Shown in pieces: positions 1 to 4,848 of a DNA stretch of 4,848 nt. A model generated the notes under the pieces. It saw only the letters and a program-made list of their open reading frames with translations. It was not told where the DNA came from and ran no database searches. The stretch's first letter is position 1; each line of letters starts with the position of its first letter. The position numbers were made by a program, and so were the translations under genes. Source of the DNA: a virus (taxonomy: Duplodnaviria > Heunggongvirae > Uroviricota > Caudoviricetes); IMG/VR virus record IMGVR_UViG_2617270960_000012. The stretch is one strand, 5' to 3'.

Positions 1-504
1 TTATTGATAGTGTTTTATGTTCAGATAATGCCCGATGATTTTGTCATGCAGCTCCACCGATTTTGAGAACGACAGCGACTTCCGTCCCAGCCGTGCCAGG
101 TGCTGCCTCAGATTCAGGTTATGCCGCTCAATTCGCTGCGTATATCGCTTGCTGATTACGTGCAGCTTTCCCTTCAGGCGGGATTCATACAGCGGCCAGC
201 CATCCGTCATCCATATCACCACGTCAAAGGGTGACAGCAGGCTCATAAGACGCCCCAGCGTCGCCATAGTGCGTTCACCGAATACGTGCGCAACAACCGT
301 CTTCCGGAGCCTGTCATACGCGTAAAACAGCCAGCGCTGGCGCGATTTAGCCCCGACATAGCCCCACTGTTCGTCCATTTCCGCGCAGACGATGACGTCA
401 CTGCCCGGCTGTATGCGCGAGGTTACCGACTGCGGCCTGAGTTTTTTAAGTGACGTAAAATCATGTTGAGGCCAACGCCCATAATGCGGGCTGTTGCCCG
501 GCAT
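1..504 (-). CDS. insB: IS1 transposase InsB frame; normally expressed as an InsAB' fusion by -1 ribosomal frameshift
   Basis: The 167-aa ORF from the track matches IS1 InsB along its length (…[18 protein letters not shown]…[39 protein letters not shown]…). The stop codon is at the window edge (1-3 reverse complement). Confidence 0.9.
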
Positions 505-696
505 CCAACGCCATTCATGGCCATATCAATGATTTTCTGGTGCGTACCGGGTTGAGAAGCGGTGTAAGAACTGCAGTTGCCATGTTTTACGGCAGTGAGA
601 GCAGAGATAGCGCTGATGTCCGGCGATGCTTTTGCCGTTACGCACCACCCCGTCAGTAGCTGAACAGGAGGGACAGCTGATAGAAACAGAAGCCAC
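423..696 (-). pseudogene. insA: IS1 insA with an internal frameshift; the N-terminal zinc-finger part and the C-terminal HTH part are in different frames
   Basis: Translated from GTG at 696 (minus), the frame reads [43 protein letters not shown], then shifts and stops at 526-528. The InsA C-terminus ([33 protein letters not shown]…LKNSGRSR) appears only in another frame, fused to unrelated upstream sequence in the 423..725 track ORF. Compared with canonical IS1 as I recall it, this is a 2-bp deletion between window positions 568 and 569. The IS1 length in the window (751 + ~15) is also 2 bp short of 768. Confidence 0.6.
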
Positions 697-751
697 TGGA
701 GCACCTCAAAAACACCATCATACACTAAATCAGTAAGTTGGCAGCATCACC

Positions 752-967
752 CGCCTCTGCAAACGCTGCGACCCAATAAGCGAAATGCTTCGCTCATATA
801 AACCAGATGAACACACTAAGGACGCTATCGACTGGCTGGAAGATGATGACTGTGACTATCAGGAAAAAGCCGCTGAATGGTTCTGGGATGCAATAACCAA
901 AAGAGTTAAGGCTGAATATGCCTTCGCAATATTCAAACGCAGACACATTTTTGGAGAAGCAGCATGA
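752..967 (+). pseudogene. 3' remnant of a phage early gene truncated by the IS1 insertion; product unknown, possibly the partner of recT
   Basis: The frame of the 785..967 track ORF stays open with no stop back to the IS1 boundary at 752. There is no Shine-Dalgarno before the ATG at 785. Its TGA stop overlaps the recT ATG (ATGA at 964-967). Confidence 0.35.
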
Positions 968-1866
968 GCAATATCGTTGAATTCGTTAAACAGCAAGAGC
1001 AGTTATTCTGCGGAGCATTGACTGAACAGACGGTGACATGGGCTAAGGAAAGCCAGTTTGCAATTCAGTATTTCCAGAAAAATGATTACCTGGCTAAAAC
1101 GGCACTGGCAAATCCAACCAGCGCACAGAACGCCATCATCAATGTTGCGGCGATCGGCATCACCTTAAACCCGGCCAGCAAACTTGCTTATCTAGTTCCG
1201 CGCGACGGCATGGTTTGCCTTGATATCAGCTATATGGGATTACTTCACCTTGCACAGTCGACAGGATCAATTAAGTGGGGGCAATGCAAACTGGTGTACT
1301 CAAACGACACCTATGAATCAAACGGCCTTGATTCAGCACCAACCCACAAATACAACGCATTTGGTGAGCGAGGCTCTATTGTTGGTGGTTATTGCACGGT
1401 TAAAACAGCAGATGGTGACTACCTGACTGAAGAAATGAGTCTGGCAGAAATTAAAGCTGTGGAAGCAACGAGCAAGGCAAAGAATGGACCGTGGAAAACA
1501 TTCTGGGAAGAGATGGCGCGTAAAACAATAGTTAAACGCGCCAGCAAATACTGGCCTAAAGCCCAGCGACTGGATAATGCCATTCACCTGCTTAACGAAG
1601 ATGAAGGTATGCATCAGGAACCAGTTATGCCGCACAAATCAGAGGAAGATATACGCGAAGATGAACGGAAACGCCAGCAGGAAATAATGGATAAAGCACA
1701 ACTTCTTTGTGATGAAATGGCTCAAGCAGAAAACATGGATGATTTGAAGCGATATTTTGCAGAAGCATATCGCCTGACATCTGGAATGAAATTGCAGCAG
1801 AACGTACAAGCCATTTACGCAGAATGCAAAGCGAAACTGGAGGTTGCCAGTGAGCAAACTGTATGA
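964..1866 (+). CDS. recT: RecT-family single-strand annealing recombinase
   Basis: 300-aa ORF with GGAGA 6 nt upstream of ATG 964. The motif NGPWKTFWEEMARKTIVKRASKYWP matches the conserved core of E. coli RecT (NGPW..HWEEMAKKTAIRRLFKYLP). It carries a long charged C-terminal tail. Confidence 0.88.
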   Translation: MSNIVEFVKQQEQLFCGALTEQTVTWAKESQFAIQYFQKNDYLAKTALANPTSAQNAIINVAAIGITLNPASKLAYLVPRDGMVCLDISYMGLLHLAQSTGSIKWGQCKLVYSNDTYESNGLDSAPTHKYNAFGERGSIVGGYCTVKTADGDYLTEEMSLAEIKAVEATSKAKNGPWKTFWEEMARKTIVKRASKYWPKAQRLDNAIHLLNEDEGMHQEPVMPHKSEEDIREDERKRQQEIMDKAQLLCDEMAQAENMDDLKRYFAEAYRLTSGMKLQQNVQAIYAECKAKLEVASEQTV

Positions 1867-2332
1867 AATTGCCAATGAATACGCAAAATTGATGGATTCA
1901 GATTTAGAACCAGAGATGATTGCTGACACAATAGAAGGCATGGAAGGAGAATTTACCGATAAAATAGAGCAACTTCTTTCCGTCATTAAAAATGAATCTG
2001 GTTATGCCGAACGCCTCAAGGAAGAGGCAAAGTCACTGAATGAGCGAGCCACAGTAATTCAAAATAAGATTGACAGCATTATGGCGTATATAGCGTCATC
2101 GCTTGAAATGGTTGGCAAGAAAAAGATTCGAGCAGGTATTCACCAGGTAACAATCCGCAAACCGTCAGAAACTGTAGAAATCATCGACTCAAGCGCCCTT
2201 CCTCCTGAATACGTTGAGTTTGAAACGACAATTAAAGCCGACAAACTGGCAATCAAACACCAACTAAAAGCAGGAATAAATATCCCCGGCGCTCAACTCA
2301 AAGTTGGGAAACCTTCACTTCTTATCAAATAA
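1850..2332 (+). CDS. Siphovirus Gp157-family protein, commonly found next to phage recombinases
   Basis: The N-terminus (SKLYEIANEYAKLMDSDLEPEMIADTIEGMEGEFTDKIEQLLSVIKNE…) and the …VTIRKPSETVEIIDSSALPPEYVEFETTIKADKLAIKHQLKAG… region fit the Gp157 family pattern. Start is placed at GTG 1850 (GGAGG at 1839-1843, 6-nt spacer) rather than the track's TTG 1844. It overlaps the recT stop by 17 nt. Confidence 0.72.
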   Translation: MSKLYEIANEYAKLMDSDLEPEMIADTIEGMEGEFTDKIEQLLSVIKNESGYAERLKEEAKSLNERATVIQNKIDSIMAYIASSLEMVGKKKIRAGIHQVTIRKPSETVEIIDSSALPPEYVEFETTIKADKLAIKHQLKAGINIPGAQLKVGKPSLLIK

Positions 2333-2343
2333 CGGTATCGACT

Positions 2344-2658
2344 ATGAAAAAGACTCCATGGGAGAAATGGGAAGTCGATTTCTTGCGCGAAGTAGCGGCG
2401 ACAATGCCAGTTGAAGTTATCGCTGAAAAACTGGAAAGGACTGAAAAAGCAGTAATAGCAAAAGCAACAAGGATTGGCGCTGACATTGTTAGCCGACTTC
2501 GTGGAAGACGCTGGACAAGAGCCGAAGTATCACTTTTCGGTAAGTTCTCCGCAGAAGAAATAGCAATTGCAACCTGCCGCTCAATTTATTCAGTGAGAGC
2601 TATGCGATACAAGCTAAAAAAACTCGATGAAGAGAGAACAGGCATACGAATAAATTAA
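2344..2658 (+). CDS. Small protein with two tandem helix-turn-helix-like repeats (sigma-70 region 4 / Myb-like pattern); putative DNA-binding regulator
   Basis: 104-aa ORF with an internal duplication: [12 protein letters not shown]…[24 protein letters not shown] and [39 protein letters not shown]. No obvious Shine-Dalgarno before ATG 2344. Confidence 0.55.
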
Positions 2659-2674
2659 CAAAGAGGAATTTACC

Positions 2675-2842
2675 ATGAGAGGACTTGCATACAATCCCGG
2701 CATTCTTCCGGCAGAAATGATTATTCGCCAACGCGTAAAGCCAATGCCATCGAGAGAAGAATTGCTTAAGAGAAAGAGTTTCGGTTCTGTTAATGACAAC
2801 AAATATCTGAATGCGATGTGGCGCAAAGGAGGCAACCAGTGA
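2675..2842 (+). CDS. Small basic hypothetical protein (55 aa), not in the supplied ORF track
   Basis: ATG 2675 follows AAGAGGAA (2661-2668). Translation is [55 protein letters not shown]. Its TGA stop (2840-2842) overlaps the GTG start of the next gene (GTGA). Confidence 0.5.
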
Positions 2843-2843
2843 G
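2827..2843 (+). repeat. Copy 1 of an exact 17-bp direct repeat aggaggcaaccagtgag (Shine-Dalgarno plus GTG start module)
   Basis: Identical 17-mer at 2827-2843 and 3068-3084. It extends to 20 bp with one mismatch (t/c at 2844/3085). Confidence 0.85.
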
Positions 2844-3093
2844 TAATTCAGCACGACTACAGCTTGGTTTTTCACCGCTATCAAAAACTATCATGCTGGC
2901 AAAAATGCGCGATGTTGAAGGTGGACGTATGCGCGTTGGCAATGATCCAGGTCGTGATGTTACCAATGAGGCTGCTCAATTGGTGTGGCGACTGGTCATG
3001 GCTGAAGGTGGTGAGATCGCGTGGGAGCTGGATGATGGTTCTCGCATGGTGTTGAAGGCAGAAAAGCAGGAGGCAACCAGTGAGCAAGATTGA
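2839..3093 (+). CDS. Hypothetical small protein (84 aa)
   Basis: GTG 2839 follows AGGAGG (2827-2832, 6-nt spacer). Same frame as the track ORF 2818..3093. The gene body is flanked by two copies of an exact 17-bp repeat. It overlaps the next gene's start by 14 nt. Confidence 0.55.
3068..3084 (+). repeat. Copy 2 of the exact 17-bp direct repeat aggaggcaaccagtgag
   Basis: See copy 1. Spacing between copies is 241 bp. Each copy contains the ribosome-binding site and GTG start of the gene that follows it. Confidence 0.85.
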
Positions 3094-3793
3094 TTATCAG
3101 GCACTGCGTGCTAAGGCAGAAAAAGCAACGTGTGGTGTATGGTCGCTCGAATATGGAGAGAGCCGATTTGATGGTGATGATGCGCTAATTCATCGTGAAG
3201 TTGCTGGATATATTCCCATTTGCAGAATTGAAGGAGCGCATCCAGAAAGCGGTTTCGATGAAGATTTCCAAATGGAACAGCAGGCCAATGCTGAATTCAT
3301 CGCAGCAGCCAGTCCAGCTACCGTGCTGGCACTACTGGATGAACGGGAAAGAAACCAGCAATACATCAAACGCCGCGACCAGGAGAACGAGGATATTGCG
3401 CTTACGGTTGGGAGGCTGCGCGTTGAGCTGGAAGCAGCAAAAAAGCGCATAGCAGAACTGAAAGCCGAACCTGTAAGCCAAACTTACAAGTTGAACCAGC
3501 TATCGGGCAATTCTCCGGTAACTCCGGATGGTTGGATAAGCTGTAGTGAGCGGATGCCTGTAATTGGCGAGCTAAATTGGAGAACTAGTTTTCCTTTACT
3601 GGTTACGTGTGAGATCGGCGTTATACCTGCTTATTACGGCTTTGTGAGAGTTAATGGGAATAAGCATTATGGTTTTATGGAGAGTCTTAAATATGGAGAT
3701 GATAGCGGCAACCATCCTCAAACTAATGAATATGACCTGATTAGCAATGTAACCCACTGGAGCCGCTGCCAGAACCGCCGAGCAGGATGGTGA
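3080..3793 (+). CDS. Ea22-like prophage protein with a C-terminal DUF551-like domain
   Basis: 237-aa ORF starting at GTG 3080 after AGGAGG. The N-terminus [16 protein letters not shown] resembles Ead/Ea22-like proteins of enterobacterial prophages. A central coiled-coil-like stretch (RLRVELEAAKKRIAELKA) is followed by a C-terminus (GWISCSERMPV…NVTHW…) resembling DUF551. Confidence 0.65.
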   Translation: MSKIDYQALRAKAEKATCGVWSLEYGESRFDGDDALIHREVAGYIPICRIEGAHPESGFDEDFQMEQQANAEFIAAASPATVLALLDERERNQQYIKRRDQENEDIALTVGRLRVELEAAKKRIAELKAEPVSQTYKLNQLSGNSPVTPDGWISCSERMPVIGELNWRTSFPLLVTCEIGVIPAYYGFVRVNGNKHYGFMESLKYGDDSGNHPQTNEYDLISNVTHWSRCQNRRAGW

Positions 3794-3796
3794 ATA

Positions 3797-3883
3797 ATGC
3801 CGCCAGTTAAAGTTGTGATTATCACTTTGGTGATGATAGTGATTGCGAGAATCATGTCTGGTGAAATTGGGTGGATATGGTAA
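3797..3883 (+). CDS. Possible 28-aa hydrophobic micro-peptide with a single predicted transmembrane helix
   Basis: ATG 3797, translation MPPVKVVIITLVMIVIARIMSGEIGWIW, stop TAA 3881-3883. Only a weak AGGA lies 9 nt upstream. It sits directly after the Ea22-like stop codon. Confidence 0.25.
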   Translation: MPPVKVVIITLVMIVIARIMSGEIGWIW

Positions 3884-3946
3884 TGACCAAGGCAGCAGCA
3901 GAGCGCAACTAACAATCCTCGCACTGACGGGGATTTCTTTTATCTG

Positions 3947-3971
3947 AACTCGCTACGGCGAGTTTTGTTTT
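3947..3971 (+). terminator. Intrinsic (Rho-independent) terminator-like hairpin
   Basis: Perfect 7-bp stem aactcgc / gcgagtt with loop tacg, followed by the T-rich run ttgtttt. Confidence 0.5.
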
Positions 3972-3984
3972 ATGGAGATGATAA

Positions 3985-4152
3985 ATGCACTTCCGAGTCA
4001 CAGGTGAATGGAATGGAGAACCATTCAACAGAGTTATCGAAGCAGAGAACATCAACGACTGCTATGACCACTGGATGATATGGGCGCAGATAGCACATGC
4101 AGACGTAACCAATATTCGAATTGAAGAACTGAAAGAACACCAAGCCGCCTGA
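3985..4152 (+). CDS. Small acidic hypothetical protein (55 aa)
   Basis: ATG 3985 follows GGAGA (3974-3978, 6-nt spacer). Translation is MHFRVTGEWNGEPFNRVIEAENINDCYDHWMIWAQIAHADVTNIRIEELKEHQAA. Terminator-like hairpins lie on both sides. Confidence 0.55.
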   Translation: MHFRVTGEWNGEPFNRVIEAENINDCYDHWMIWAQIAHADVTNIRIEELKEHQAA

Positions 4153-4167
4153 TGGCGGTTTTTTATT
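4142..4167 (+). terminator. Intrinsic terminator-like hairpin overlapping the stop codon of the 55-aa gene
   Basis: Stem aagccgcc / ggcggttt (8 bp with one G-U pair), loop tgat, followed by ttttatt. Confidence 0.45.
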
Positions 4168-4178
4168 GGAGACAAGAA

Positions 4179-4523
4179 ATGTCAGATTTGGCTATGAAGG
4201 TTTTGAAATGGCAATCGACTGGCGATGTCGGCATCAGTAGCGCAACTCTTGCCTCAATCGCATGTGGCCTGAAAAAGAATATCTATGGTCATCACTTCGG
4301 CGCTCCGCATGACGCAGCCGATTTCCGACGATGCGTTGCACTTGTTGAGCAGATTCCAGAAATCAGAGATTCATTCGACAAGGTTGCAAAGCGCGTTCCG
4401 GCATTCAAAGGCATCCTCAACGAATGGGATTCCCTCGTCGCTCTGTTGAAGTCTGAAATGAAGATACACGGAAACAAAGCACCAGAGACTTACAGAAGAA
4501 TAAGCGAGTTACGCAATGACTAA
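4179..4523 (+). CDS. Hypothetical prophage protein (114 aa)
   Basis: ATG 4179 follows GGAGA (4166-4170). It is in the same frame as the track ORF 4152..4523, whose upstream ATG lies inside the terminator hairpin and is therefore less likely. No family recognised. Confidence 0.55.
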   Translation: MSDLAMKVLKWQSTGDVGISSATLASIACGLKKNIYGHHFGAPHDAADFRRCVALVEQIPEIRDSFDKVAKRVPAFKGILNEWDSLVALLKSEMKIHGNKAPETYRRISELRND

Positions 4524-4647
4524 CCACAGCCTCACACTCGATGAGGCCTGTTCATTTCTCAAGATATCCAGACCTACCATTGCTGCATCAATGCGGCTTT
4601 TTATTGCCTGATTTGCAGGTTCGATTCCATATTCGGAGATAGCACTC

Positions 4648-4848
4648 ATGCAACACGAACTACAACCTGATTCACTGGTTGATTTGAAATTCATCATGGC
4701 TGATACTGGCTTCGGTAAGACCTTCATCTATGACCGGATTAAGTCCGGCGACCTGCCTAAAGCCAAAGTTATCCACGGACGAGCAAGATGGTTATATCGT
4801 GACCATTGTGAATTCAAAAATAAGCTCTTAAGCCGCGCCAATGGGTAA
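4648..4848 (+). CDS. AlpA/Xis-family small helix-turn-helix protein; excisionase or transcriptional regulator
   Basis: 66-aa ORF with GGAGA 9 nt upstream. The core …FIMADTGFGKTFIYDRIKSGDLPKAKVIHGRARWLYRDHCEF… fits the AlpA/excisionase pattern (…TG.S.STIYR.I..G.FP.P..LG.R...W…). The stop codon is the last 3 bases of the window. Confidence 0.78.
   Translation: MQHELQPDSLVDLKFIMADTGFGKTFIYDRIKSGDLPKAKVIHGRARWLYRDHCEFKNKLLSRANG

Follow-up and report, generated by a model that had tools for sequence, protein, structure and literature searches.

The window, meaning the whole stretch of 4,848 nucleotides that was analysed, carries an IS1 element at its left end and next to it a block of phage genes on the + strand running from a gene remnant and recT to torI (Table 1). 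The gene at its right end, called xis in a preliminary description of this DNA, is torI, and the published torI primers (PMC3509656) match positions 4632-4655 and 4825-4848. RecT scores 115.8 bits against PF03837, for which the gathering cut-off is 24. Terminator-like hairpins at 3914-3965 and 4142-4161 flank the phrog_676 and phrog_1229 genes, and another one, at 4582-4597, lies at the ypdJ-like remnant.

Table 1. Features located in the window, with their positions and strands.
Feature	Position	Strand	Remarks
IS1 (IS1A-like)	1..751	-	Aligned with the complete 768-bp IS1 of 1297KP (L001 5233-6000)
insB reading frame	1..504	-	167-aa ORF; homologous copy annotated by PGAP
insA	526..696	-	Frame shifted where 2 bp are deleted near base 567; InsA truncated after codon 43
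CGCCTCTGC	752..760	.	9 bp adjoining IRL, without a repeat at the other IS1 flank
3' remnant of phrog_3486 gene	752..967	+	Codons 32-102 plus stop; probably Gam-like
recT	964..1866	+	300 aa, intact; PF03837 E 2.5e-33; phrog_148; PGAP 'RecT family recombinase'
Siphovirus Gp157 / Mu Gam-like end-protection family gene	1850..2332	+	160 aa; PF05565 E 4.6e-37; phrog_253
Early-left accessory genes	2344..3793	+	Pfam and PHROG matches; series also in L018
104-aa protein gene	within 2344..3793	+	Early-left accessory
DUF2737	2675-2842	+	Early-left accessory
DUF7446	2839-3093	+	Early-left accessory
Ead/Ea22+DUF551 protein	3080-3793	+	237 aa; early-left accessory
55-aa gene, phrog_676	3985-4152	+	Function not assigned
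114-aa gene, phrog_1229	4179-4523	+	Function not assigned
ypdJ-like excisionase remnant	4516..4611	+	SLTLDEAC.FLKIS common to K-12 YpdJ
torI	4648..4848	+	Recombination directionality factor (excisionase) of the KplE1-type module; 66/66 identical to K-12 TorI

The first base of the window lies 15 bp inside the IRR end of IS1, and the IRL is found at 729-751, where the terminal inverted repeat (...atcagtaagttggcagcatcacc) stops at base 751. IS1 is an element of 768 bp with imperfect terminal inverted repeats of approximately 23 bp (GGTGATGCTGCCAACTTACTGAT / GGTAATGACTCCAACTTATTGAT). Its transposase is made from the insA and insB' frames by a programmed -1 frameshift, and a simple insertion is flanked by a 9-bp target-site duplication (occasionally 8–11 bp). 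Both ends are present in the full 768-bp copy of E. coli 1297KP (L001, 5233-6000), which served as the blastn alignment reference for the IS1 of the window. PGAP annotates this copy as 'IS1-like element IS1A family transposase' with the programmed frameshift, and both the insA and insB frames are found in the window. The window is 99.9% identical to 1297KP overall, and the differences, which amount to 3 SNPs and one 2-bp gap, are confined to IS1. Either a true defect or an error of sequencing may lie behind the 2-bp deletion in insA; among about 69,000 IS1 places, no copy identical to that of the window was found.

To the right of IS1, the + strand frame that contains base 752 is open from 737 to a stop codon at 965-967, which overlaps the start codon of recT (ATGA, 964-967). 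The IS1 terminus at 751, the frame open to the junction and the overlap with the recT start had all been noticed in the preliminary description and are confirmed in the window, except that the remnant, given there as 72 residues, counts 71 codons. An intact form of this gene is known from a prophage in GCA_043181895.1 (L018), which is 100.000% identical to positions 752-4848 of the window (4,097 bp, no mismatch) and has a complete 102-codon gene upstream of the matching stretch; more than 260 other E. coli genomes possess an intact 102-codon gene at this place. IS1 therefore does interrupt a gene upstream of recT, as had been claimed, and has taken codons 1-31 of it. This is a real truncation of the 102-codon gene and not chance, because the identical prophage retains the gene and because the homology of 265 genome records starts exactly at base 752. 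The 102-aa protein matches the phrog_3486 profile (102 positions) end to end, and the family, with approximately 30 diverged members of 97–107 aa, is conserved in its N-terminal third. In the AlphaFold model, which consists of five helices (mean pLDDT 90.9), the missing part corresponds to helices 1-2. The small gene would thus be dead, with two helices of the five gone and with its start codon and ribosome-binding site missing.

It might still be argued that nothing was truncated, and that the first in-frame ATG of the remnant, at 785, opens a real gene of 60 aa (785-967) translationally coupled to recT, with IS1 sitting in the spacer. The ORF has a start codon and the ATGA overlap with recT that such coupling calls for, but no Shine-Dalgarno sequence stands at ATG 785, and GGAG-type sites are found at recT and at the intact 102-codon upstream gene. 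Moreover, the full 102 codons exist in L018, no family of 60 aa was found where the known members measure 97–107 aa, and the missing part forms helices 1-2 of the five-helix model. We regard this reading as extremely improbable.

The window itself begins within IS1, and the left flank of the element was therefore read in 1297KP. The arrangement there is CGCCATGTT, IS1, CGCCTCTGC; the two 9-mers differ, and a target-site duplication is lacking. On its left, IS1 adjoins the interior of a P22-like tailspike gene (658 aa in VTB96777v), whose frame runs for 261 codons without a stop as far as the IS1 junction, and the overall order is yfdC, argW, intS, EpsG, tailspike remnant, IS1, gene remnant, recT and so on to torI and dsdC. 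The element between the att cores measures 8.4 kb. In Kapi1 the two breakpoints are about 31.7 kb apart, and the deleted length of ~32 kb is an estimate from the relatives Kapi1 and VTB96777v, not from the true parent. Since the 9-bp flanks differ, we are dealing with an IS1-associated deletion and not a simple insertion. Non-matching flanks are no argument against the identity of the element as IS1; they mean that one simple insertion did not produce its present junctions. The preliminary description had suggested a defective prophage or an IS1-mediated deletion and had named the other IS1 flank as the place where a duplication should be sought. The flank in 1297KP, CGCCATGTT and not CGCCTCTGC, lacks the duplication and lies inside the tailspike gene, which agrees with that suggestion. 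A simple insertion into an otherwise complete prophage, in which only the small gene was disrupted, is compatible with the window alone, which ends inside IS1. It is highly improbable in view of 1297KP, where the tailspike interior is followed outward by EpsG, intS and argW, where the 9-bp duplication is lacking, and where only 8.4 kb separate the att cores.

The whole is, with high confidence, a defective P22-like argW prophage with a single IS1 at the junction of a ~32-kb IS1-associated deletion. The IS1 would link the last 261 tailspike codons to codon 32 of the 102-codon early gene, and the deletion would have removed the 5' part of the tailspike gene, the virion and lysis genes, Q, nin, the replication genes, cro/cI, pL/N, cIII, kil and codons 1-31 of the small gene. 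Two routes to this product may be envisaged, an adjacent deletion by intramolecular transposition of IS1 or a recombination between two IS1 copies. Deletions promoted by IS1 at its own border and deletions by recombination between IS copies likewise leave one IS1 exactly at the deletion junction, with mismatched flanking 9-mers and flanks collinear with the parental map. Compared with such known cases nothing is unusual here; the mechanism is read from its product, and the IS1 of the window appears to be insA-defective. The event is ordinary prophage decay. It illustrates in textbook fashion how prophages are pared down to cryptic remnants by insertion sequences, and the finding in itself matters very little.

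In the second route, the tailspike gene and the 102-codon gene would each have received an IS1 by a separate insertion, and the two copies, oriented alike, would then have undergone homologous recombination. This route differs from the one-step adjacent deletion in mechanism only, and we hold it to be possible though the less likely of the two. The end product would be identical, a single IS1 whose flanks do not match and represent one half each of two different target duplications. The median number of IS1 places per E. coli genome is 10, so that double hits are plausible, and breaks in the small gene have recurred in other lineages. Against this, a genome with either of the single insertions was not found. 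The IS1/gene junction on the right occurs in 1 of 5,426 complete E. coli genomes, and in exact-pattern scans it was absent from GTDB species genomes and JGI metagenomes; the left-flank sequence is present in only two genomes, one of them without IS1, and intermediates in which a target-site duplication accompanies IS1 were not found either. Two insertions followed by a recombination are also needed, whereas the adjacent deletion is a single event, and IS1 is a classical promoter of adjacent deletions, as reportedly described by Reif and Saedler in 1975.

The multicopy nature of IS1 brings up an assembly artefact, that is, a chimeric junction at the repeat. The differences of the window's copy from that of 1297KP, with a 2-bp deletion seen in no other copy, could reflect consensus errors. 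However, an identical right junction outside IS1 is found in an independent chromosome-level assembly, that of 1297KP, where both flanks keep the order of the prophage map, between argW/intS on one side and torI/dsdC on the other, and this explanation is accordingly very unlikely.

In the argW tRNA gene resides a P22-like (Lederbergvirus-type) prophage that has become defective, and the window covers its right arm. The published 16-nt att core CTGCAGGGGACACCAT (PMC2951348) lies outside the window at both ends of the element in 1297KP, at L001 1766 within tRNA-Arg and at 10171 downstream of torI; in the K-12 record (L010) it is found at 2370 and 12585. In prophages of this type intS lies by attL and the RDF gene torI by attR, at opposite prophage ends (PMC2951348), and the remnant in 1297KP has the same organisation, with intS adjoining attL and torI adjoining attR. 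Its TorI and IntS are identical to the K-12 proteins at 66 of 66 and 383 of 386 (99%) positions, respectively. Since attL, attR, intS and torI have all been preserved, production of TorI would be expected to allow excision of the 8.4-kb remnant, as it does for KplE1.

KplE1/CPS-53, the cryptic prophage of K-12, shares with the present element the site between yfdC-argW and dsdC, the 16-nt att core at both ends and a ypdJ-like excisionase remnant upstream of torI, and it likewise is without the immunity region and the lytic genes (PMC2951348, PMC3509656). Its internal content, however, is unrelated, and only positions 4526-4848 of the window align to K-12 (92.9%). KplE1 retains gtr-type genes, tail-fibre remnants and yfdM-T and carries no IS1, whereas the present element retains an EpsG-family gene, the 3' remnant of the tailspike gene and the early-left block with recT, with IS1 at the deletion junction. 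The element goes back to another P22-like phage, which decayed at the KplE1 site independently of KplE1. Intact P22-like phages that integrate at argW are also known, among them vB_EcoP_Kapi1 (Lederbergvirus), an Escherichia phage (PMC8787464) that is 91-97% identical to the element over recT, intS and torI. Kapi1 and L018 have a gene order in common with the element, from xis/torI through Ea22, DUF2737, the 104-aa gene, Gp157 and RecT to the 102-aa gene, and continue with Kil and CIII as far as cI. They hold the full genome of ~39 kb, of which the element is without ~32 kb, having IS1 instead.

The loss should also have consequences for expression. In L018 the 102-codon gene is preceded by Kil, CIII, early genes and cI/cro/O/DnaB/nin, and hence pL lies there; the earlier claim that IS1 separates the + strand block from an upstream promoter region is in line with this. 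The block from recT to torI would be without pL and the N antiterminator and would not respond to cI/SOS induction. A promoter scan placed the insA promoter-like site inside the IRL (744-717, - strand), so directed that the transposase promoter would point away from the recT-to-torI block. The same scan gave no + strand promoter reading outward from the end of IS1, and the TTGGCA in the IRL has no usable -10 at 16–18 bp. Several terminator-like hairpins would further stand between the recT block and torI. We infer that the recT-torI block may be silent. Promoter-like sites on the + strand are present in the AT-rich tailspike remnant. As a promoter of torI itself, TTGCCT-17-CATATT at 4604-4632 was considered and rejected, being below the scan threshold and too near the start codon. 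With this element, the KplE1/argW site has a second occupant that decayed independently; IntS, TorI and att are intact in it, and repressor, pL and N are gone. Remnants of this sort could offer a natural point of comparison for the control of TorI expression and of prophage maintenance after loss of the lytic promoter.

What the interrupted gene encoded is the remaining question. RecT genes usually have an adjacent nuclease gene, and the preliminary description proposed that the lost gene could be the nuclease partner of RecT. In Salmonella phage SEN22 a small gene of this kind even adjoins exonuclease VIII. However, 102 aa is too small for a nuclease, and no match to RecE, YqaJ, lambda Exo or PD-(D/E)xK nucleases was found in Pfam, PHROGs, PDB sequences or fold searches. 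The modelled fold is all-helical and most like GamS. In SEN22 the exonuclease is encoded separately from the small gene, and in L006 the small gene is followed by RecT and then by YqaJ, the nuclease thus having a gene of its own on the downstream side of recT. The interrupted gene is not a nuclease, and there is hardly any likelihood left for an exonuclease partner of the RecE, YqaJ or lambda-Exo type.

We lean modestly towards the view that the interrupted gene encodes a lambda-Gam-like inhibitor of RecBCD. The best structural match of the 102-aa protein is lambda GamS, a nuclease inhibitor, the chains of which gave the top TM-scores for the model (0.53-0.62; Foldseek against PDB) at a level that is not significant; no significant Foldseek match was found in PDB or BFVD. 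Sequence searches of the 102-aa protein against Pfam and PDB, GamS included, likewise gave nothing significant, and none of 30 family members matched PF06064 (Gam) at E up to 10. In a profile-profile comparison, residues 53-77 match residues 58-82 of GamS collinearly around the motif DDDxx[YF]QE; the hhalign probability of this match is only 26.6%, with a pairwise E of 6.9e-4 over 25 collinear columns. Its score of 24.2 compares with 11.2 ± 2.1 (maximum 17.3) in 200 column shuffles and approximately 11.3–11.4 in reversed controls. Ribosomal protein S15 and MntR also appeared as weak PDB profile matches (E 0.05-0.5), which were judged to be noise. Small helical bundles are prone to convergent similarity, a caveat for any likeness to GamS.

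Gene order points in the same direction. In lambda the order is cIII-kil-gam-bet-exo, and in L017-L019 and Kapi1 it is CIII-Kil-(102 aa)-RecT, which places the 102-aa gene in the position of gam in the pL operon, between kil and the annealase. Some lambda-type Gam entries have Gam and Lambda_Kil Pfam domains within one called protein, suggesting that kil and gam are adjacent there. The 102-aa protein and Gam are both acidic and of similar size (pI 4.7 versus 5.0), and the acidic composition would be consistent with a dimeric DNA mimic that binds and inhibits RecBCD. The partners differ, those of lambda Gam being Bet plus Exo and those of the 102-aa protein being RecT plus Gp157 (Mu-Gam-like). 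For the family as a whole, we give an even chance to the proposal that the phrog_3486 proteins are distant relatives of lambda Gam, recognisable by structure, and act as the RecBCD inhibitor of RecT-based lambdoid/P22-like recombination modules, including those of RecT plus Gp157 in which no exonuclease is recognisable. They are labelled 'hypothetical protein' in the PGAP, Kapi1, mEpX1 and HK140 records. If true, this would assign a function to a family of approximately 100 aa that is labelled 'unknown function' and lies beside RecT in many enterobacterial phages, and it would bear on recombination in phages and perhaps also on recombineering with RecT. That this unannotated family is probably Gam-like is the only mildly new point of the analysis.

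Finally, the breaks that the same gene has suffered in other lineages deserve a remark. The breakpoints in L007 and in L008/9 both lie exactly 9 bp inside the IS1 junction, and neither junction type occurs in the complete E. coli genomes. In L007 the break results from an illegitimate deletion reaching from the nutL/N region, at a 2-bp microhomology. A link between the 9-bp offset and the target duplication of IS1 was considered, and no mechanism was found to fit. Three independent rearrangements within 9 bp might mark a recombination-prone spot.

The IS1 copy stands in reverse orientation and its left-end inverted repeat ends at base 751 (...ATCAGTAAGTTGGCAGCATCACC), to the right of which a + strand frame is open up to a stop codon overlapping the recT start codon (ATGA). 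Both features had been read directly from the sequence in the preliminary description, which gave the remnant 72 aa where there are 71 codons. Over its full length the window is 99.9% identical to the genome of E. coli 1297KP (locus L001), and all differences fall inside IS1, as three SNPs (39, 463 and 492) and one 2-bp gap. The 1297KP copy is complete (768 bp) and annotated as an IS1A-family transposase; the window leaves out the outermost 15 bp of the other IS1 end. Relative to that copy, a 2-bp deletion near 567 frameshifts insA after codon 43, and no copy identical to the window IS1 was found among ~69,000 IS1 places in 5,426 genomes, and the deletion is either an inactivating mutation private to this copy or an error of assembly. 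The promoter of IS1 itself, in the IRL, is directed into IS1 and away from recT.

In the intact relatives A11 and VTB97448v recT is immediately preceded by a 309-bp gene, whose product reads MILTLNDKREISQIIASFTDEDHERINSEVD and then RLCKRC...; the IS1 junction corresponds precisely to the boundary of codons 31 and 32. The best comparator is an undeleted prophage in GCA_043181895.1 (L018), located at the same chromosomal position adjoining dsdC, which matches window 752-4848 at 100.000% identity (4,097 bp, 0 mismatches) and carries upstream the intact 102-codon gene, Kil, CIII, further early genes, cI/cro/cII, O, DnaB and nin genes. Of 5,426 complete E. coli genomes, 300 gave a megablast match to 752-2000, with 301 records in all; 265 of these records cover 80% or more of the query, and among the matches listed the full-length ones start at the first base past IS1. 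The IS1/gene junction is rare, occurring in one of the 5,426 genomes. The full-length protein aligns end to end with phrog_3486 ("unknown function"; 1-102 of 102, E 3.7e-58), and an exhaustive HMMER search gave ~30 diverged representatives, all of 97-107 aa and with the N-terminal third conserved. A self-standing 60-aa protein starting at ATG 785 would be the alternative; a Shine-Dalgarno sequence is absent before this codon and present for recT (GGAGAAG) and the intact 102-codon gene (AGGAGAAAG). Because the family measures 97-107 aa, the L018 gene is intact and the 60-aa ORF is without a Shine-Dalgarno sequence, the truncation by IS1, with loss of codons 1-31, is real.

The ATGA overlap with the next gene is kept across diverged members of the family, in which the C-terminal E-(A/V)-A is also conserved, and the recT ribosome-binding site sits within the coding end of the upstream gene. 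These features suggest translational coupling of the 102-codon gene to recT, which the truncated gene would no longer be able to supply.

IS-mediated prophage erosion is well known, and IS1 is classically able to promote adjacent deletions. The left flank of the 1297KP element ends ...CCCGCCATGTT and its right flank begins CGCCTCTGC..., with no 9-bp duplication. Simple insertion is therefore excluded, provided that the source of the window shares the 1297KP left flank, and the pairing of a target-site duplication with an intact homologue ending at 752, expected if nothing had been truncated, is not seen there. The left flank recurs in a single other complete genome, where it falls within a 658-aa P22-like tailspike gene adjoining an EpsG-family gene; in 1297KP the tailspike frame stays open through 261 codons as far as the IS1 boundary. 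These non-matching flanks, the left one inside the tailspike gene, bear out the IS1-associated deletion suspected earlier. Both are collinear with the map of intact argW phages such as Kapi1, whose order is xis ... recT, 102-aa gene, Kil, CIII ... cI, cro ... Q, lysis, virion, tailspike, int (PMC8787464). Scaled to the 39.4 kb of Kapi1, the lost stretch is ~31.7 kb; the att core CTGCAGGGGACACCAT (core sequence from PMC2951348) occurs at two places in the 1297KP locus, and therefore the whole remnant measures 8.4 kb, IS1 included. An IS1-promoted adjacent deletion would leave a single IS1 at a collinear junction with non-matching flanks, and recombination between two co-oriented IS1 copies should give the same product. 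The end product does not tell the two routes apart, and deletion intermediates were found in none of the complete E. coli genomes, GTDB species genomes and JGI metagenomes. Left of IS1 the locus retains an EpsG-family (O-antigen polymerase-like) gene adjoining intS, together with the receptor-binding end of the tailspike (261 codons); a putative lysogenic-conversion-type gene has outlived the deletion.

By sequence, the site, att cores, intS and torI define a recombination module of KplE1/CPS-53 type (PMC2951348, PMC3509656): identity to K-12 is 66/66 for TorI and 383/386 for IntS, and published torI primers match the window (PMC3509656). Alignment with K-12 CPS-53 is limited to a ypdJ-like remnant and torI, and K-12 CPS-53 is without IS1 at the corresponding place. 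The element has therefore decayed independently, from another P22-like phage integrated at the same argW site. The 31-codon ORF immediately before torI has an HTH motif of excisionase type (LTLDEACSFLKISRPTI); its K-12 CPS-53 counterpart is the ypdJ pseudogene remnant, and it appears to be the relic of a second excisionase gene. A 237-aa ORF with an Ead/Ea22 N-terminal and a DUF551 C-terminal domain is flagged by PGAP in 1297KP as a partial pseudogene; as the intact prophages L018 and L020 have the same 237-aa product called, it probably represents a true gene of fusion type.

Coordinates of the features and gene order of the 1297KP locus (L001)
Feature	Record	Position	Remark
IS1, reverse orientation	window	1-751	insB, insA on - strand
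IS1, complete	L001	5233-6000	
Match to whole window	L001	5248-10097	
IS1 promoter in IRL	window	744-717	- strand
insA 2-bp deletion	window	near 567, within 520-615	
Open frame	window	737 to stop 965-967	+ strand
ATGA overlap	window	964-967	
C-terminal E-(A/V)-A	window	955-967	alignment A2
att cores	L001	1766; 10171	
EpsG-family gene, tailspike remnant	L001	3275-5232	left of IS1
Promoter-like sites	L001	4789-4818; 5008-5035	+ strand
Terminator-like hairpins	window	3914-3965; 4142-4161; 4529-4547; 4582-4597	+ strand
237-aa ORF	window	3080-3793	
31-codon ORF	window	4516-4611	
Alignment with K-12 CPS-53	window	4526-4848	
torI primer matches	window	4632-4655; 4825-4848	
Break in 102-codon gene	window	752-761	
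Break in 102-codon gene	L007	4066/4067	
Break in 102-codon gene	L008	681/682	
Break in 102-codon gene	L009	743/744	
P0015 comparison	L003 (VTB97448v)	5822-6110	
Family with RecT+Gp157	window	752-2332	
Family with RecT+Gp157	Kapi1		
Family with RecT+YqaJ	L006	4001-5912	
Family with exonuclease VIII	SEN22 (KT630648.2)	26492-26707	
Map, left	L001		mlaA, yfdC, tRNA-Arg (argW), intS, EpsG
Map, middle	L001		tailspike 3' remnant (- strand), IS1 (- strand)
Map, right, first part	L001		102-codon gene 3' remnant, recT, Gp157, 104-aa gene, DUF2737, DUF7446
Map, right, second part	L001		Ea22/DUF551, 55-aa gene, 114-aa gene, torI, then dsdC

Judged from what lies upstream in L018, the deletion would have removed cI, pL, N, cIII and kil, and a loss of this extent, with cI, pL and N included, agrees with the severed operon and defective prophage of the preliminary description. 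The promoter scan of the window found no + strand promoter-like site at the IS1 junction. The + strand carries more terminator-like hairpins than expected (13 window-wide vs 5.1 +/- 2.5), and they cluster between the recT block/Ea22 gene and torI; in the intact phage they presumably require N antitermination, and without N, read-in transcription should halt at them before torI. Strong promoter-like sites are predicted antisense in the AT-rich tailspike remnant. Excision of KplE1 is governed by RDF expression, plasmid-borne torI being enough for it (PMC2951348, PMC3509656), and the copy number of CPS-53 is raised by Rho inhibition (PMC11551753). Given the lost cI, pL and N, the hairpins and the torI-driven excision of KplE1, the remnant is probably locked in and SOS-non-inducible, yet still excisable.

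The suggestion that the cut gene was the nuclease partner of RecT did not hold. Pfam, PHROG and PDB sequence searches gave the 102-aa protein no nuclease-family match; the order small gene, RecT, YqaJ in locus L006 places the nuclease downstream of recT, and in Salmonella phage SEN22 a gene of this family precedes a separate exonuclease VIII gene. The truncated gene, severed operon, defective prophage and IS1-associated deletion all stand. The family moves independently of the nuclease, its partners being RecT with Gp157, RecT with YqaJ, or exonuclease VIII, and the RecT+Gp157 modules of the window and Kapi1 hold no recognisable exonuclease.

A confident AlphaFold2 model from a 30-sequence alignment (mean pLDDT 90.9, pTM 0.77) predicts five helices (5-16, 20-34, 40-46, 53-63 and 65-101), of which IS1 takes away the first and most of the second. 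Profile-profile comparison with the Gam family alignment places residues 53-77 on GamS 58-82 with the motif DDDxx[YF]QE (probability 26.6%, pairwise E-value 6.9e-4), and the hhalign score, 24.2, is higher than that of any of the 200 column-shuffled controls (mean 11.2, sd 2.1, max 17.3) or of the reversed controls. The order CIII-Kil-X-annealase in L017-L019 and Kapi1 puts the 102-aa gene in the position of lambda gam, and the protein and Gam are both acidic and of similar size. Pfam returned no Gam match, and Foldseek against PDB and BFVD nothing significant, the best TM-scores there being those of GamS chains (0.53-0.62). We slightly favour a Gam-like RecBCD inhibitor, as a lead and not as a membership. 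In 1297KP both IS1 and the partial gene already have a PGAP annotation; the sole modestly novel by-product is that phrog_3486 is probably Gam-like, which is annotated in none of the records compared and for which literature searches, one of them full-text, turned up no description.

Two further unrelated rearrangements break the 102-codon gene at one identical base, 9 bp inside the IS1 junction, an offset equal to the IS1 target-duplication length. In L007 the gene is broken by a deletion that extends from the nutL/N region and shows 2-bp microhomology, and in L008 and L009 the gene is joined to a nin-region flank. Protein P0015, compared with VTB97448v, carries a deletion between two GATGATGA repeats by which an overlapping ORF upstream is joined to the 102-aa gene at codon 62, and this variant is a further example of the frequent small deletions in the early-left region.
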